Positions 20,512 through 27,833 of a stretch of 64,000 nt of DNA are shown here, piece after piece. Every line of letters starts with the position of its first letter. Within the stretch, counting starts at the first letter, position 1. Under the pieces are notes generated by a model that had not been told where the DNA came from, made no database searches, and was given only the letters and a program-made list of their open reading frames with translations. The DNA comes from Candidatus Bathyarchaeia archaeon (GTDB lineage: Archaea; Thermoproteota; Bathyarchaeia; Bathyarchaeales; Bathycorpusculaceae), in the NCBI GenBank assembly GCA_038883655.1, contig JAVZLQ010000001.1:327208-391207 (forward strand), given 5' to 3'. The translations under genes and the position numbers were made by a program.

Positions 20512-20742
20512 CTACCTTGTTATCTTCTTTGCCTCTCTTTCAGTTTCTCTAAGCATCAGTATATCTTGAACCCTCACTGGACCCTTAACATTACGTGTTA
20601 TGATTCGTCCCTTATCCTTCCCCTCTAGGATGCGCACCCTCACCTGTGTGATTTCGCCGGTAACGCCCGTACGTCCAATAACTTGAATTACCTCTGCTGG
20701 GGTAAGTTCTTCCTCAACAGTCTTCTTCTCTTCCTTGCTCAT
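20512..20742 (-). CDS. rps28e: 30S ribosomal protein S28e
   Basis: [20 protein letters not shown]...[18 protein letters not shown]. Confidence 0.97.
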
Positions 20743-21122
20743 TGTGTTGTTCCTCTTTTAAGCTGCTCCACCTTGGCAATTATTTCCTTGACAAGTCCGG
20801 CGGCGTCTCCTTCCCTTATGATGCAAGCAGAGGCAGCGGATACGTCGATGCCAACGGCATCGCCGAGCTTTTCTTTGCTTGGAACGTAGACATATGGAAT
20901 TTTTCTCTCCTCACATAGCAACGGCAAATGCGCCACAACCTCTGGCGGATCAACATCCTCAGCTATCACTACAAGTTTAGCTTGAGCCCTTTCTATCGCT
21001 TTTGTGGTTTCGTTTGTGCCTTTCCTAACAGCCCCTGTTTTTGCAGCTATTTGAAGGGCTTCATAGGCTGCATCTGCAAGTTCTTTTGGAACTTCGAACT
21101 TAACATAAAACGGTTTTGACAT
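20739..21122 (-). CDS. rpl7ae: 50S ribosomal protein L7Ae (start corrected to MSKPFYVKF)
   Basis: [33 protein letters not shown]. Confidence 0.97.
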
Positions 21123-21421
21123 GAGCCTCACCCAAATGCACAGTCTTATCAACAATTCTCATTTATTTAAGTTTCGTCTAATAAAGAGAAAACACACGTT
21201 AACTAGGTAAGTTGTGACCATAAGATGAATTTACAAAGGGCGGTTTTAACACAATTGTATAAAAGACGAAAAACGTTGAATGGCAGCAATCGTTTAAACT
21301 TGCTTATAAACTAGTTTCCACAAAATTGCATCTTGGAAAGTCATTCACAAAATAATGTAGAAATGTTTAAATAAAATGATTCGTTGAAACCTCTCACTTT
21401 TCGTGAGGGGAAAATGAAAGC

Positions 21422-21679
21422 TTGCAGAGATTAGGCAGAGTCCTCCACGCAACTCCAAGCCGTAACATCGTTGTAAAGGTTGAAAATGTTCCAAAAATTG
21501 GAGAAAAAGTTGTTGATGAAAATATGAAGCCAATAGGAAATGTTTTTGACATAATAGGGCCCATACGCGCGCCCTACGCAATAATAAAGCCAACTATTAA
21601 AGAAGTAAAAGACCTTGTAAGCAAAACGTTGTACACGCTTCCCCTCGAGAGGAGAAGGGAGAAGATGAAAAATGAGTGA
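21422..21679 (+). CDS. gar1: H/ACA RNP protein Gar1/Naf1
   Basis: RLGRVLH, PKIG..V.D, IG.VFDIIGP..PY motifs; conserved position upstream of tfb. Confidence 0.88.
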
Positions 21680-22646
21680 CGATTTAGAAGGATCTGTGGG
21701 GGCAGATTCTCCATCACCAACATCCGCACTTGAACATGCAAAAATTCAACGCTGCCCAGAATGCGGCAGCACAAGGCTCATGCGAGATTACGAGTGCGCA
21801 GAAATAGTTTGTATGGACTGCGGCGTGGTTATCGCCGCAAAAATAGCCGATAGGGGCCCAGAGTGGAGGGCATTTGACGACGAGCAGAGAAGCAAAAGAA
21901 CGAGGGTTGGCGCACCATTAACCTACACGATTCATGATAAGGGCCTTTCAACAATGATTGATTGGCATGACAGGGACATTTACGGAAAAAGTCTATCTCC
22001 TGGACAAAAAGCGCAGGTTTACCGCCTAAGAAAGTGGCAGCGCCGCATAAGAGTTTCAGATGCAACGGAGCGAAACCTTGCTTTTGCGTTGTCTGAAATA
22101 ACGAAAATTGCCAACAACTTAAGCTTGCCAAAAAACATTCTTGAAACGGCGTCTGTCATTTATAGAAAAGCCGTGAAAGAGAGGCTAATCCGCGGAAGAT
22201 CTATTCAAGGCGTAACAGCCGCGGCGATTTATTTGGCTTGTAGGCAGTGCGGATTAGCGAGAACGCTGGAGGAAATAGCTCAAGCTTCAAGCGTTAACAA
22301 GAAGGAGGTTGGACGCAGTTACCGCTTCTTAATAAAGGAATTGGAGTATTCTATTCCGCCCTTGAAGCCAAGCCAATACATCACTAAATTTTCAAATCAG
22401 CTGACAATGCAGGGAAAAGTTGAAGAAATTGCTCACAAAATATTAGCGGCGGCAAAAGAGCTTAAGCTAACTTCTGGGCGTGGTCCAACAGGAATAGCGG
22501 CTGCAGCCAGCTACATAGCTTCTGTCTTGACTGGTGAGAGGAAGACTCAAAGGGAAATTGCCGAAATTGCGCAGGTAACAGAGGTTACTATTCGAAATAG
22601 GTATAAAGAACTAGTTGAGAGACTAATGTTTCAAATAAGCATCTAA
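21672..22646 (+). CDS. tfb: Transcription initiation factor IIB
   Basis: Zn ribbon CPECG..CMDCG, GPEWRAF, two cyclin repeats, [13 protein letters not shown]. Confidence 0.98.
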
Positions 22647-22689
22647 TGTGAAGCATCACTTCCCCATTTATTTTTCTGTTTTGAAATTT

Positions 22690-23001
22690 CTATAGTAGTT
22701 CCTCTTCCTCGTCGCAGCTTTGACATTCTTCTTGTTTTTCTTCTTCAAGAAGGGTCGATGCCACTTCACGGAATTCTTGAAGAAACTCTCTTGGAATTTT
22801 ACTCTTCAAAGTTTTAACTTCTCCCTTCAACTTGTCAACTTCGCTTTCCAAACTCTTCGCCTTCTCACTTAGCTCCACGACCTCTTTGAGCTGTTTAACC
22901 TCCTCTAAAAGCATAGCCTTCTCCTTCTCGAGGGCTCTAATTTTTTCTTCAAGTTTACTTTTCATCTCGCCGACGTGCATAATTTCGCACACCCAAACCA
23001 T
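22690..23001 (-). CDS. Coiled-coil protein with acidic CxxC tail (likely start 22965)
   Basis: Heptad repeat LEEKIRALEKEKAMLLEEV...LESEV; tail EEEKQEECQSCDEEEELL. Confidence 0.75.
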   Translation of the reverse strand: MVWVCEIMHVGEMKSKLEEKIRALEKEKAMLLEEVKQLKEVVELSEKAKSLESEVDKLKGEVKTLKSKIPREFLQEFREVASTLLEEEKQEECQSCDEEEELL

Positions 23002-23101
23002 CTATCTTAGCTAGTGGAATTAATAATTTACCACACTGTAAAAGTTTCAAAACACATTTTAGACAAAAGCTAATTATTTTACTTAGGAGGAGGGAAGTTG
23101 C

Positions 23102-23533
23102 TTGGTTAAATGTTCAAAGTGCGGAGCAGAAGTACCGTACCCTGTTAAAACCTGGCCCATTCCTTCCAGAAAACCATCGGGAAAAGCTGGAGAATCAAAA
23201 ATTTCTGTAGGGATATTTGATTGCCCAAAATGTGGGGCTAGGTTTAGAGCAGCTTTAGAAGCTGAAACCAGGCTTGAAGAGACAGTAAGTATTAAAAACA
23301 TGGTGGAGAGAATTAAAGGGATAAGGGAAGAGCTTATGCAGACTCTGAAGAACCTGCGTGAGAAAATTAAGACTTTGGAAACTGAAAGGGCAAACTTGAT
23401 GATTGAAATTGAAAAGTTAAGGAAAGCTGCTGAGTCGAAGGCAAGCGCGTTGGAAAGCGAAGTGAACATGCTGCGAGAAGAGGTGCGCTCTTTAAGAGAA
23501 CTTCTGGGATACGTGGAAGAAAAAGAGAAATAA
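23102..23533 (+). CDS. Cren7-like zinc-ribbon domain fused to a long coiled coil
   Basis: KCSKCG...P.KTW.....VGIFDCPKCGARFR resembles the Cren7 pattern (P.K.W ... IGLF.DP..GKYFR); strong GGAGGAGGG SD. Confidence 0.7.
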   Translation: MVKCSKCGAEVPYPVKTWPIPSRKPSGKAGESKISVGIFDCPKCGARFRAALEAETRLEETVSIKNMVERIKGIREELMQTLKNLREKIKTLETERANLMIEIEKLRKAAESKASALESEVNMLREEVRSLRELLGYVEEKEK

Positions 23534-23540
23534 TGATAGA

Positions 23541-23927
23541 CTATTCCTTTAAAAATCTTTTATAATATTCTTGAGCTATTGCTACCGCTTTTTCTGGATT
23601 CTTCAATATTGGATAAGAAACTCCTGAGATCTTTTGGCATTCGCTAAAATATTCAACAACCTTTTTTACATTGCCTTCATAGATTGCTAAACCACCAGCA
23701 ATTCTATACCACAAATTAGCCTTAACGAGGTCTTTCTCTTTCTCAGCTTTCTTCGCGTTTTCAGCAGCCTCCTTCATCGTAACCCCGAGTTTTTTTGGGT
23801 TAAGGTACATCGTGTTCAGCAGGGCTTCATAAGCTTCTTTGTCATCTCCGCAAAGTTGTTCAAGCTCCGTTAACTGCCTCGGTTTCTCACTGCTCTTTTT
23901 CTTTCTGAACCTGTCGAGCAAACCCAA
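23541..23927 (-). CDS. Hypothetical helical protein with N-terminal amphipathic basic helix
   Basis: MGLLDRFRKKK N-terminus; AGGAGG SD; all-alpha composition. Confidence 0.7.
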   Translation of the reverse strand: MGLLDRFRKKKSSEKPRQLTELEQLCGDDKEAYEALLNTMYLNPKKLGVTMKEAAENAKKAEKEKDLVKANLWYRIAGGLAIYEGNVKKVVEYFSECQKISGVSYPILKNPEKAVAIAQEYYKRFLKE

Positions 23928-24005: not shown

Positions 24006-24626
24006 TTGATTATGCCATATAAGTTCACGTTTGACCTTTCGACTATTCCACGCTTGTTTTTCAGCGAAATAGCTAAGATTAGTTATCGGAAAAGCTTACA
24101 TAAAAAAGTCGGGAAAACAATGCTTGAGATAATAGAGAAGTTTAAGCTTCAAGAGGCAACTGGTCTTAACCTGTCTGAAATTGTTGTTCTCCTACAGGAT
24201 ATTGTCGAGATTCAAGCGAGAAACCTTTCTGAAAGGGAGAAGTTTGTGCAAACGCGTAGGAGAGCCCTATTCTTGCCGCACTGCTCAAGGAAATACATGG
24301 ATGGTAGGTGCAAGGCAATCTTTAATCCAGACTTACCAACCTATGTTTGTGCGCGTTGTTCTCCGGACTGCCTAATAAACAAAACTGTAACCTTCGCCGA
24401 AAAAAAGGGCTACGACGTCTACATATTGCCCGGGGGCTCATGTGTCGCTAAAATTTTAGGCTCTAAACGTTATGATGGTGTTGTTGGAGTTGCATGCGGT
24501 GAGGAAATCAAAATTAGTGGCGAGGCATTGAAGAATTTGGGTATTGCTGGACAAGCTGTGCCTTTAATAAAGAATGGATGTGCAAACACGGTTTTCAACA
24601 TCGAAACTTTGTTTAAAATTCTTTAG
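24006..24626 (+). CDS. DUF116-domain protein
   Basis: LFLPHCSR, C..C...C, YI.PGGS, GVAC..E and PL...GC motifs. Confidence 0.8.
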   Translation: MIMPYKFTFDLSTIPRLFFSEIAKISYRKSLHKKVGKTMLEIIEKFKLQEATGLNLSEIVVLLQDIVEIQARNLSEREKFVQTRRRALFLPHCSRKYMDGRCKAIFNPDLPTYVCARCSPDCLINKTVTFAEKKGYDVYILPGGSCVAKILGSKRYDGVVGVACGEEIKISGEALKNLGIAGQAVPLIKNGCANTVFNIETLFKIL

Positions 24627-24637
24627 GGCGCCCTAAT

Positions 24638-24799
24638 TTACTTTATGATTTCTCTTTTCTTCCAACGTAGGTTTTTGCTTCGGCAACGTCTACACTTGAC
24701 AGCGCTTTCCGCGTTTCTTGCACCACATTCCCTGCATATCTTCATGTAAAGCCTATGCTTTTGGGCAAGTGTCTTTTTGAATGGATCCATTATCGGCAT
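24638..24799 (-). CDS. rpl40e: 50S ribosomal protein L40e (absent from ORF track)
   Basis: Manual translation MPIMDPFKKTLAQKHRLYMKICRECGARNAESAVKCRRCRSKNLRWKKREIIK (53 aa). Confidence 0.95.
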   Translation of the reverse strand: MPIMDPFKKTLAQKHRLYMKICRECGARNAESAVKCRRCRSKNLRWKKREIIK

Positions 24800-24864: not shown

Positions 24865-25728
24865 TTATTGGCTGATAAGTTTGGCTACGTCGCCTGGTTT
24901 TTCGGCAACTTTTATTCCCGCCATCTTAAGCGCTTCAATCTTGTTTTCTGCCGTTCCAGCTTTGCCCATTATTATCGCGCCAGCATGTCCCATGCGCTTT
25001 CCAGGTGGGGCGGAGCGTCCAGCTATGTACGCCACTATTGGTTTTGGATAGTTCGTCTTTGCCACGTAATCAGCCGCTAACTCTTCAAGGTTTCCGCCTA
25101 TCTCGCCTATCAAAACAACAGCCTTTGTCTGCTCATCCTTCTCGAACATCCTCAGAACTTCGATGAAGTTTAATCCCGTTATTGGGTCTCCGCCTATACC
25201 TAGGCATGTGGATTGCCCAAGATTCTTTGCGGTTAAGCCTGCCGCTATTTCATATGTAAGTGTTCCGCTTCTTGAGACTATTCCGATCTTCCCCGGCTTG
25301 AAAATATGCGATGGCATTATCCCAAGTTTGCTCTCTTCGGGGGTTATTATACCGGGCGTGTTTGGTCCAATTATTGTGGCGTTTAGCTGTCTTGCGCGTG
25401 CCATCATGTTGATTGCATCTTTTATTGGGATGTGCTCGGTTATTATCACCACTGTTCTTATTTCATTTTCTAGAGCTTCCAGAACAGCGTCCACCGCGAA
25501 TGGCGCTGGCACAAAGATTATGGCTGCGTTTGCATTATGTTTTTGCTGAGCTTCTTCTCCGCTGTCATATACAGGAACGCCGTGTACTGTTGCTCCGCCT
25601 TTACCCGGGGTAACTCCTGCAACGATTTTTGTTCCGTATTCTAGCATCAGTTTTGTGTGAAAGCTTCCTTGTGCTCCGGTTATTCCCCAAACAATTGCTC
25701 TTGTATTTTTTCCGATTATTATGCCCAT
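24865..25728 (-). CDS. sucD: Succinyl-CoA synthetase alpha subunit (start corrected to MGIIIG)
   Basis: [29 protein letters not shown] and RMGHAGA (phospho-His) motifs. Confidence 0.95.
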
Positions 25729-25729
25729 G

Positions 25730-26878
25730 TTATTTTCCTCCACCTTTGACGATTTCAACCGCCCTTTGTGCGGCTTTTTCCATGCTTTCAAGTACGTCTA
25801 TTCCTGCTTCTGTGAGGATTTTTCTGCCCTCTTCTTCGTTTGTGCCAACAAGCCTAATAACCATGGGTTTTGTAACGCCAACCCTTTCTTTTGCTTCTAG
25901 TATTCCCTTTGCAACGTCGTCGCAACGTGTGATCCCGCCGAGGATGTTTATGAAAAGTGCTTTGACATTTTTGTCTGATAAGACTATTTGTAGAGCCGCA
26001 GCGATTTTTTCTGGTGGTGCTCCGCCGCCAACGTCTAGAAAGTTTGCTGGTTTCCCTCCGTAGACTTGTATCGTGTCCAATGTTGCCATTACTAAGCCAG
26101 CGCCGTTTCCTATTACGCCTATATCGCCGTCCAGTTTAACGTATGCCAAATCGTTTTTCATAGCCTCGATTTCCTGTGGTGTTAGTTCGCCCTCGTCCTC
26201 CATAAGCCTCTTTTTGTATTCTGGGTGGCGGAACAACGCATTATCATCTATTATGATTCTTGCGTCTGCCGCAACAAATTTTCCATCAACAGTCTCGATA
26301 AGAGGGTTCATTTCGATTAGTTCTGCGTCGTAATCCATTCCTATGCGGTATAGTCTTTCGAAGATTCTGCCAAGTTCTGGAAGTGCACTGCCGCTGTAGC
26401 CTATCTTTTTTGCGATTTGGCGGGCTTGGAAGGGATAGAAGCCATGTATTGGGTCTATTGGAAATTTTATGACTTTTTCTGGTGATTTTTGGGCAACTTC
26501 TTCTATTTCCATTCCGCCGACGGCAGATGCTATTGCAACATAGCTTCGAGCAAAACGGTCTATTGTTATTCCGAAGTAAAGTTCCCTTTTCGTTTGGATT
26601 TTTTCCTCAATCCAAACGCTTCTGACTGGTATACCCTTTACCTGCATGCCTAAAAGTTTCTCCGCCGCCTTTTCCGCCTCTTCTATAGAAGAGGCGAATA
26701 ATATTCCGCCAGCTTTTCCTCTTCCAGCGATTAGAACTTGCGCTTTAATGGCGAGTGGTGGTTTTAGTTTGGATGCTACTTCGCGGGCTTGGTTTACGTT
26801 TGTTGCTAATCCGCCTTGCGGTGTTGGTATTCCATATTTTGCGAGTATGGTTTTTGCTTCATATTCGAAGAGTTTCAT
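25730..26878 (-). CDS. sucC: Succinyl-CoA synthetase beta subunit
   Basis: MKLFEYEAK, KAQV..GRGKAGG, GNGAGLVMATLD, ANFLDVGGG and NILGGITRCD motifs. Confidence 0.95.
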   Translation of the reverse strand: MKLFEYEAKTILAKYGIPTPQGGLATNVNQAREVASKLKPPLAIKAQVLIAGRGKAGGILFASSIEEAEKAAEKLLGMQVKGIPVRSVWIEEKIQTKRELYFGITIDRFARSYVAIASAVGGMEIEEVAQKSPEKVIKFPIDPIHGFYPFQARQIAKKIGYSGSALPELGRIFERLYRIGMDYDAELIEMNPLIETVDGKFVAADARIIIDDNALFRHPEYKKRLMEDEGELTPQEIEAMKNDLAYVKLDGDIGVIGNGAGLVMATLDTIQVYGGKPANFLDVGGGAPPEKIAAALQIVLSDKNVKALFINILGGITRCDDVAKGILEAKERVGVTKPMVIRLVGTNEEEGRKILTEAGIDVLESMEKAAQRAVEIVKGGGK

Positions 26879-27554: not shown

Positions 27555-27833
27555 ATGTCAGAGAGCAACTCAGTACTCGTCGGGAATAAGCCAGTAATGA
27601 ACTATGTACTGGCTTGCATAACCCTCTTTCACGGCGGAGCGAAAGAAGTAAATGTGAAGGCAAGAGGGCGATCCATAAGCCGTGCAGTCGACGTCGTTGA
27701 AGTTGTGAGGCGCAGGTTCCTGCCAGATGTTAAGATCAAGAAAGTTGGCATTGGAACTCAGTCAATGGCACCCAGAGAAGAGGGTGGCACGCCAACAAAC
27801 GTCAGCACGATCGAGATAACTCTTGAGCGATAG
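27555..27833 (+). CDS. albA: Chromatin protein Alba
   Basis: [40 protein letters not shown]. Confidence 0.96.

Follow-up and report, generated by a model that had tools for sequence, protein, structure and literature searches.

Cren7 (PF11520) is a small protein known to bend DNA as a monomer, and its classical form, represented by Sso6901 and relatives in Crenarchaeota, is a monomer of about 60 amino acids (aa) without zinc. The main text of Kaur, Iyer, Subramanian and Aravind (2018, PMC5906684) derives this protein from a zinc ribbon, describes versions with two to four cysteines in crenarchaea and bathyarchaea, takes the classical form to have lost its cysteines and proposes a functional diversification of Cren7 beyond bulk packaging. 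The subject of the present study is a pair of divergent genes in a stretch of 64,000 nucleotides (nt), called the window in what follows, from a hot-spring Bathyarchaeia genome (assembly GCA_038883655.1, 1.42 Mb, 93% complete; contig JAVZLQ010000001.1, positions 327,208 to 391,207 of the forward strand). One of the genes encodes ZnCC, in which a predicted zinc ribbon of Cren7 type is joined to a long coiled-coil stalk, and the other encodes acidCC, a paralogue of the stalk that has no such head and ends in an acidic tail. A third paralogue, basicCC, again consisting of the stalk, is encoded elsewhere in the genome.

Bathyarchaeal four-cysteine Cren7 ribbons and fusions of ribbons with coiled coils also appear in the text of PMC5906684, and the Cren7 superfamily as such is already in print. 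Unlike the fusions described there, ZnCC bears its ribbon at the N-terminus, and its stalk matches no known family. The architecture of ZnCC, the stalk-only paralogues and the linkage to tfb, the gene of transcription factor B (TFB), are not described in the text of that paper (Figure 2B and the supplements aside), and the same applies to the promoter motifs in the text of the literature consulted.

Other well-characterized systems resemble the locus in layout. The enterobacterial proteins H-NS, StpA and H-NST share with it a DNA-binding domain set on a coiled-coil oligomerisation module and the existence of headless paralogues, although there is no homology and the order of the domains is the opposite. 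According to the text of PMC5647153, paralogues without the DNA-binding part have been proposed to form heteromers and to inhibit bridging by H-NS; H-NST is experimentally supported, whereas acidCC is known here from its sequence. Eukaryotic bZIP and HLH-Id pairs likewise contain leucine-zipper-type modules, one partner being devoid of a DNA-binding part, but in the bathyarchaeal pair there is no basic region by the zipper, and DNA binding by ZnCC would come from a flexibly linked zinc ribbon. In the zinc hook of Rad50 an intermolecular zinc site is formed from CxxC pairs, with the CxxC placed at the apex of an antiparallel coiled coil. Similarly, acidCC carries a single conserved CxxC on a coiled coil, and a four-cysteine site could form only between two chains, but its CxxC (a putative metal site) lies in the acidic tail, 8 residues from the C-terminus.

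The ZnCC head and its relation to Cren7

An earlier note on this DNA, made from the letters alone, had pointed to a CxxC...KTW...GIF.CxxC..FR head in one protein and to an acidic C-terminus with C..C in the other, and had likened the head to Cren7. Both patterns are present in the sequence, and the likeness to Cren7 has been upheld by a profile search, by the six best structural matches and by free-standing relatives above the Pfam cut-off. Residues 1-59 of ZnCC were compared with 1.8 billion representative proteins, which gave 89 proteins at E <= 1e-3, 80 of them being aligned. At least 90% of these 80 head relatives share each of C4, C7, G8, K16, W18, C41, C44 and F48, and C4, C7, C41, C44 and F48 are invariant among 34 ZnCC orthologues. 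The Pfam Cren7 model is matched by 16 of the 80 at E <= 0.01 (best value 3.8e-14). Moreover, four of ten small free-standing head relatives score 29.5-52.8 bits on this model (cut-off 25) and are 44-57% identical to the head of ZnCC, the free-standing bathyarchaeal relatives being in this way Pfam Cren7 members themselves.

A profile built from the 80 relatives retrieves Cren7 chains from the PDB at E-values between 3e-4 and 4e-3 (5wwc_A at 3.1e-4, 3kxt_A and 2jtm_A at about 3e-3), the only other match of like strength outside coiled coils being RPB9 (4.5e-3). In the profile alignment, K16, W18, I20, G37, F39, F48 and R49 of ZnCC fall on K24, W26, residue 28, G39, F41, F50 and R51 of Cren7, and the likeness therefore comprises, besides the fold of the head, the Lys, the Trp, the hydrophobic wedge, the Gly-x-Phe and the Phe-Arg found at Cren7 positions 24, 26, 28, 39-41 and 50-51. 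Cren7 contacts DNA through Lys24, Trp26 and Arg51. Its Leu28 is the intercalating residue (PMC5042384). Equivalents of these four residues are kept in ZnCC as K16, W18, I20 and R49.

When the head is modelled alone (predicted local distance difference test, pLDDT, 75.9; strands 16-20, 33-40 and 47-54), it adopts a small beta fold with two hairpins and a three-stranded sheet, which is superposable on Cren7 structures. The CxxC knuckles are located at the turns of the two beta hairpins, as in zinc ribbons, and zinc-ribbon models give many sub-threshold matches to the head. In a Foldseek search, a check that had been proposed together with the earlier note, ranks 1-6 are all occupied by Cren7 structures (probability 0.91-0.99, template-modelling score 0.44-0.64, 28-31% identity). 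Furthermore, an exhaustive pass with VIA-align places Cren7 4r55_A at Z 4.5, with a root-mean-square deviation (rmsd) of 2.0 A over 44 residues. The label "Cren7-type" is used because profile, fold and transitive links combine, no single match being strong. A single-sequence phmmer search of ZnCC against the PDB gave just weak matches to the Elf1 and eL43 ribbons and to coiled coils. In Pfam and NCBIfam scans of ZnCC, acidCC and the neighbouring protein p128, no family was found above its cut-off, and the coiled-coil matches (Filament, YabA, ASRP and others) were generic and sub-threshold.

Taken together, sequence profile and model support the view that the head is a zinc-binding, ancestral-type form of Cren7, ZnCC itself staying under the Pfam threshold, and this agrees with the zinc-ribbon origin of Cren7 given in the text of PMC5906684. 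ZnCC differs from classical Cren7 in keeping the four cysteines, in having a longer loop between the equivalents of beta3 and beta4 and in its 72-residue coiled-coil stalk, which brings the protein to a total of 143 aa. As regards other Cren7 relatives in the source genome, a weak match on contig 3 was rejected as being TFS/RpoM. No free-standing Cren7-type gene (about 56 aa) was found in the 93%-complete assembly, and such a gene is present in 3/3 genomes of the same genus (G001-G003; for example G001:C11:20773-20937); that of the source genome is either unassembled or lost.

The stalk and its headless paralogues

In an AlphaFold2 model of ZnCC computed with 34 orthologues (mean pLDDT 84.4), the stalk is a single helix with a block pLDDT of 95-98. 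Its heptads show Ile or Val (with one Arg) at a and Leu at d, and there is a stutter near residues 110-114. A pattern of Ile/Val at a and Leu at d favours a parallel two-stranded coiled coil.

The relationship between the stalks of the divergent pair is well established by alignment. BLASTP joins residues 84-132 of ZnCC with 16-66 of acidCC at 23/51 identities (45%), with 2 gaps and an E-value of 2e-9, in agreement with the 23-24 identities in about 50 positions that had previously been counted by eye. Aligned by Smith-Waterman, the two coiled coils score 104, the mean scores being 40.3 for plain shuffles, 50.3 (sd 6.9) for shuffles that preserve the heptad register and 58.3 for permutations of whole heptads; 104 is reached by 0/5000 register-preserving shuffles and by 1/5000 heptad permutations. 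Since these controls almost never reach the observed score, the likeness reflects homology and not generic heptad bias, and the shuffling check suggested at the outset thus identifies the two zippers as true paralogues.

The alignment covers only residues 84-132 of ZnCC and no part of the ribbon, acidCC having kept the zipper module without the DNA-binding domain. Within its family (47 aligned members) the conserved elements are the zipper, an invariant central V-E-L-S segment (V42, L44, S45), the segment I-P-R-E-F-L and the CxxC tail, both cysteines being kept in at least 90% of the members. Residues 63-96 of the 96-aa protein form the tail, which contains 13 D+E and 3 K+R and has a net charge of -10. 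Because the CxxC is near-invariant in the 47 family members, a metal or redox site in the tail is plausible, as had been suggested when the tail was called redox- or Zn-sensitive. Membership of the bZIP or HLH-Id families, also envisaged earlier, is not borne out: inspection of the sequences reveals no basic region before the zipper in either ZnCC or acidCC, and acidCC reaches 21.1 bits on bZIP_1 (PF00170, cut-off 27.6) and 18.4 on bZIP_2 (PF07716, cut-off 22.3), the matches extending over the zipper only. An atlas search with acidCC yielded just generic coiled-coil neighbours, all below 0.9. The nearest predicted structure belongs to an 87-aa cluster of Nitrososphaerota, 22% of whose members carry bZIP_2, and small zipper-only proteins may, as a lead only, be spread more widely in TACK archaea.

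The second headless paralogue, basicCC, is a stalk-only protein of 72 aa encoded outside the window (G000:C2:85903-86118, minus strand; locus L002 1465-1683, minus strand), in a position divergent from the Nop5 gene. It is about 60-62% identical to the ZnCC stalk, so that basicCC (about 60%), and not acidCC (45%), is the closest stalk to ZnCC. Its C-terminus is a Lys run, and a Lys-rich end is found in 15/16 orthologues. The gene occurs in 16/41 related genomes, all of one family. In the protein collection, basicCC has 1143 clusters and acidCC 88. In the reading preferred below, basicCC is the older and commoner stalk-only member of the same set. Some orthologues at the tfb-linked locus itself are also headless: at least those of loci L034/L130 (2489-2761) and L132 (2489-2770) are stalk-only proteins of 90-93 aa, and that of L035 (1414-1854) has a degraded head with a single CxxC knuckle. 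Since tfb-linked orthologues are stalk-only in some Bathyarchaeia, the head must have been lost there at the ancestral locus while the stalk stayed.

As for the distribution of acidCC, a full-length match exists in 5/41 related genomes, each time head-to-head with ZnCC, and the genomes searched revealed no paralogous copy at another site. An acidCC-like open reading frame (ORF) is present in 31/60 close loci, a sample biased toward near relatives of the window, and always lies on the opposite strand, in the interval that separates tfb from ZnCC. On a TFB tree of 77 rows, built from overlapping sets in which some genomes occur twice, 33 rows have acidCC and 44 lack it, among the latter the six deepest. 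Where the gene is intact, the ratio of nonsynonymous to synonymous substitution rates (dN/dS) is 0.06-0.08 (3 pairs with unsaturated dS), that of ZnCC being 0.055-0.13, values which indicate strong purifying selection on acidCC. Finally, no RNA sequencing run is listed as containing the locus. Contigs that exactly match 22696-23033 and 22683-22979 (acidCC) and 23065-23244 (the 5' end of ZnCC) are found in two runs labelled metatranscriptomic, which are probably DNA; they carry no conclusion on transcription, because neither expression nor strand nor the ends of transcripts can be read from contigs.

Gene order, spacer motifs and neighbourhood

ZnCC is widely distributed. At E <= 1e-3, 788 clusters resemble it; the 120 listed ones are 70-100% identical, those with names being hypothetical proteins of Bathyarchaeia. 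Precomputed Pfam labels among these 120 are PF11520 on 3 and PF27636 on 9, and the latter, a newer entry, probably covers the main ZnCC family. Full-length matches are present in 27/41 related genomes. Among 70 species-level loci the labels are bathyarchaeal or "uncultured archaeon", with one exception: a contig of 2138 bp labelled Baldrarchaeota (L098) contains tfb, acidCC and a ZnCC that is 74% identical to the window protein, and most likely represents a binning error and not a second phylum.

The earlier note had placed the pair next to tfb, and tfb is indeed its upstream neighbour. TFB is encoded upstream of ZnCC, on the same strand, in 28/29 orthologous loci and in 57/60 close loci, and the order tfb, ZnCC, p128 (opposite strand) and DUF116 is widely kept, p128 standing beside ZnCC in most loci. 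The synteny that had been proposed for examination across Bathyarchaeia is seen, with acidCC always beside ZnCC where present, and comparative analysis depicts ZnCC as a Bathyarchaeia-wide gene fixed directly downstream of tfb.

The pair is arranged head-to-head, as stated previously with a separation of about 100-140 bp: 100 bp lie between the listed ORF ends, and 121 bp when the inner ATG at 22980 is taken as the start of acidCC, a choice based on the alignment of its 47 family members, which begins there. When the spacers of 23 loci are aligned, two conserved A/T-rich blocks emerge, CAAAACACATTTTAG and ATTAATAATTT, 18 bp apart, whose occurrence was counted over 22 loci with acidCC and 23 without. 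The block CAAAACACATTTTAG, 15 nt long, precedes the ZnCC start codon by 45-57 nt and is present in 21/22 loci with acidCC and 18/23 without. With at most one mismatch, ATTAATAATTT is found in 18/22 loci with acidCC versus 3/23 without, namely L088 (which has an acidCC remnant), L105 and L125; it occurs once within the window. From their position and A/T content, the blocks would be two back-to-back elements resembling TATA boxes and TFB-recognition elements (BRE), one per gene. Transcript starts are predicted near 23084 (plus strand) and 22998 (minus strand). A single shared bidirectional promoter, as previously assumed, is not supported by this finding of two separate motifs, one tracking ZnCC regardless of acidCC and the other tracking acidCC. 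The 15-nt motif was also considered as a regulon signal and rejected, as it has a single exact copy in the 1.42-Mb genome, with 11 near matches versus 13 for a control pattern. Closer to ZnCC, the G-rich block GGAGGAGGG and the start context TTG GTT AA. TG are conserved in at least 90% of the 23 aligned loci, the TTG start itself (23102-23104) included; because a weak start codon is conserved on a housekeeping gene, translational control may apply to ZnCC.

Table 1. Positions of the divergent pair, its parts and its conserved neighbours in the window
Feature	Coordinates	Strand	Basis or remark
tfb (transcription factor B)	21672..22646	+	ORF; conserved upstream neighbour, same strand as ZnCC
acidCC, open frame, 103 aa	22690..23001	-	ORF translation
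acidCC from inner Met, 96 aa; headless coiled-coil paralogue: zipper, then I-P-R-E-F-L segment, then acidic tail	22690..22980	-	BLASTP, family alignment
CxxC in acidCC acidic tail (C93/C96 of 103-aa frame)	22714..22725	-	family alignment
ATTAATAATTT, putative TATA-like promoter element of acidCC	23019..23029	-	spacer alignment, motif counts
CAAAACACATTTTAG, putative BRE/TATA-like promoter element (possibly also operator) of ZnCC	23048..23062	+	spacer alignment, motif counts
GGAGGAGGG, Shine-Dalgarno-like run before ZnCC TTG start	23086..23094	+	sequence, spacer alignment
ZnCC, 143 aa, TTG start	23102..23533	+	ORF translation
ZnCC head, residues 1-55, predicted four-Cys Cren7-type zinc ribbon	23102..23266	+	conservation, profile, model
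ZnCC knuckle C4/C7	23111..23122	+	
ZnCC knuckle C41/C44	23222..23233	+	
ZnCC linker, residues 56-63, low model confidence	23267..23290	+	pLDDT <50 at residues 55-60
ZnCC stalk, single helix, residues 64-135	23291..23506	+	AlphaFold2; homologous to acidCC and basicCC
p128, conserved downstream neighbour, 128 aa, family unassigned	23541..23927	-	synteny
DUF116 protein, conserved downstream neighbour	24006..24626	+	PF01976, 97.1 bits

The pair is surrounded by S28e, L7Ae, Gar1, tfb and L40e (20512-21679 and 24638-24799), a cluster of core information processing, followed by the genes of succinyl-CoA synthetase at 24865-26878. A second TFB paralogue in the genome is 47% identical to that of the window. 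A genome scan detected one histone and three Alba genes; one of the latter lies at 27567-27755 (plus strand), about 4 kb downstream of the pair, and the single histone gene at G000:C1:114090-114275 (genome contig coordinates).

Proposed function and rival explanations

The reading towards which we lean, if only slightly, is that ZnCC forms a two-headed DNA-binding dimer and that acidCC is an accessory modulator. ZnCC would be a housekeeping protein specific to Bathyarchaeia, composed of a zinc-chelating Cren7-type head, a short flexible linker and a helix of about 72 residues, and transcribed from its own conserved promoter directly downstream of tfb. By analogy with Cren7, the head may bind the minor groove of DNA through Lys16, Trp18, Ile20 and Arg49; the parallel two-stranded stalk would provide a dimer with two heads, which could occupy two DNA sites or bridge two duplexes, a layout nearer to H-NS than to monomeric Cren7. 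As regards acidCC, it would have originated within Bathyarchaeia as a duplicate of the stalk, placed head-to-head between tfb and ZnCC with its own promoter, keeping the zipper core, losing the head and gaining the strongly acidic tail with its terminal CxxC. It could then enter the zipper and cut the number of DNA-binding heads or, alternatively, mask the basic heads with its acidic tail; most likely its role is accessory, in modulating ZnCC or the stalk family.

The pairing that such a modulator may require has been considered at the level of individual residues. In both zipper halves the three paralogues agree in the type of residue found at a, d, e and g, and all g-e' pairs are attractive. 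The count of g-e' charges was tried as a discriminator and fails as such, with a score of 4 in every homo pair and 4-5 in hetero pairs. As far as core and salt-bridge positions go, either zipper half could take part in mixed pairing. A predicted complex of ZnCC 58-143 with acidCC 8-103 (score 0.02, mark 0.32, no controls) weighs neither way. When columns of ZnCC were compared with the presence of acidCC, only 2 columns differed in frequency by at least 0.4; supported branches offer 4 independent pairs, the median p is 0.25-0.5, and this underpowered comparison gives no signal of co-variation.

Several observations weigh against the preferred reading. On the side of the head, ZnCC stays below the Pfam Cren7 cut-off of 25 bits, with about 14-16 bits (whole protein 14.0, head alone 16.4, genome scan 14.7); the Foldseek E-values of its Cren7 matches, 0.07-0.25, are weak in absolute terms; and in VIA-align the zinc ribbon of NrdR equals Cren7 at Z 4.5, with an rmsd of 3.9 A. 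Moreover, ZnCC need not be a bulk packaging protein, because the genome has one histone and three Alba genes. On the side of the stalk, this part is more conserved than the head among ZnCC orthologues, surface positions included, and some lineages have lost or degraded the head at the tfb-linked locus while keeping the stalk; since headless orthologues exist and the stalk out-conserves the head, it may serve an independent function besides the dimerisation of heads. The stalk is the constant element of the family and should not too readily be taken for a mere dimeriser. Furthermore, acidCC has a conserved 2-residue insertion at the stutter, where the a-to-a step is 6 versus 4 in ZnCC and basicCC. 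Because this indel sits at the stutter, a continuous in-register zipper of ZnCC and acidCC would need a bulge, and the indel argues against a continuous heterodimer; basicCC, which is without it, would meet no such obstacle to pairing with ZnCC. Finally, 14 state changes are needed to fit acidCC to the TFB tree, well-supported branches forcing a minimum of 4, broken copies or remnants of the gene are found in 5/18 examined loci (L084, L088, L099, L103 and L108), and a genome of the same genus, 98% complete, yielded no acidCC. The picture suggested by these comparisons is one gain through local duplication of the stalk, after which the gene was kept in some lineages and decayed in others, acidCC appearing dispensable in many of them. 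Both this dispensability and the existence of basicCC had been overlooked in the earlier note.

The original proposal, a bZIP/Id-like switch in which a dimerising ZnCC is opposed by a dedicated heterodimerising antagonist with an acidic DNA-mimic tail, both transcribed from one bidirectional promoter, draws on the homology of the zippers, on a and d cores of the same type with g-e' pairs equally attractive in homo and hetero combinations, on the strict adjacency and divergence of the pair wherever acidCC is present, on the acidic tail with its conserved CxxC and on the precedent of truncated paralogues that inhibit a DNA-bridging protein, as presented for H-NS and H-NST in the text of PMC5647153. 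It is nevertheless unlikely in this form, as there are two promoter-like motifs and that of ZnCC persists without acidCC, the stutter indel disfavours a continuous heterodimer, the closest stalk is that of basicCC, acidCC is dispensable in many lineages, and neither the bZIP models nor a basic region are matched. A different and possible, though rather doubtful, explanation is that acidCC works independently of ZnCC, as a homodimer or tetramer of its own whose CxxC pairs clasp one zinc ion and whose tail binds another basic partner, such as histone, Alba or TFB, its adjacency to ZnCC merely recording birth by local duplication. Self-association is hinted at because a lone CxxC completes a zinc site only between chains, ZnCC having no spare cysteine to offer, and the invariant V42, L44 and S45, the I-P-R-E-F-L segment and the CxxC (none of them in ZnCC), the separate promoter motif and the strong purifying selection on acidCC itself would all be consistent with an independent role. 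On the other hand, acidCC is never found away from ZnCC (5/5 relatives and 31/31 close loci) despite much divergence, it has no paralogous copy elsewhere in the genomes searched, and its zipper faces remain compatible with ZnCC.

The near-universal linkage to tfb has also to be accounted for. It could mean that ZnCC is less a chromatin protein than a factor of the transcription apparatus, acting through stalk and ribbon on TFB or RNA polymerase, the headless paralogues tuning the contact, and a stalk that out-conserves the head, surface positions too, the existence of headless tfb-linked orthologues, the RPB9/TFS and NrdR zinc ribbons among the next-best matches of the head and a gene-specific, highly conserved 15-nt upstream motif, as in a tightly controlled gene, would fit such a role. 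We regard it as improbable, however, since the head is best aligned with Cren7 and keeps the equivalents of its DNA contacts, the order of ribosomal and ribonucleoprotein (RNP) genes may persist without functional coupling, and ZnCC has its own putative promoter and would form no operon with tfb. A role in chromosome segregation or cell division, with ZnCC anchoring DNA to a filament, seems very improbable: the text of Kaur et al. 2018 (PMC5906684) reports fusions of Cren7 with CdvA-like coiled coils and FtsZ and proposes DNA anchoring for them, and ZnCC too joins a predicted DNA-binding ribbon to a long coiled coil, but its domain order is the reverse, its stalk is without match to curated families, CdvA included, and no division genes lie nearby. 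Going beyond the preferred reading of a two-headed dimer with an accessory modulator, the three stalk paralogues, namely head with stalk, stalk with basic tail and stalk with acidic CxxC tail, could form a combinatorial zipper network from a stalk that equals an enzyme in conservation; mixed dimers would set the number of Cren7-type heads and the charge. We hold this extension to be unlikely.

If this network did exist, a tfb-linked architectural protein would switch among three states (bridging, coating and off), and the acidic member would add a zinc- or redox-sensitive input where retained; the whole would be an archaeal counterpart of H-NS/StpA/H-NST or bZIP/Id logic assembled from unrelated parts. 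Irrespective of the network, ZnCC is a widespread bathyarchaeal, predicted zinc-binding version of Cren7 set on a long conserved coiled coil, and as such, at the level of sequence, the first candidate for a Cren7-type protein that has two heads and possibly bridges DNA; in ZnCC the zinc-ribbon stage of Cren7 evolution appears to be captured in a working gene. The oppositely charged headless copies, together with the lineages that have lost the head, constitute a natural genetic series for asking what the role of the stalk is. ZnCC, acidCC and basicCC are small and soluble-looking (143, 96 and 72 residues), and the set would allow it to be tested whether archaeal chromatin proteins, like bacterial H-NS, are regulated by dominant-negative paralogues.

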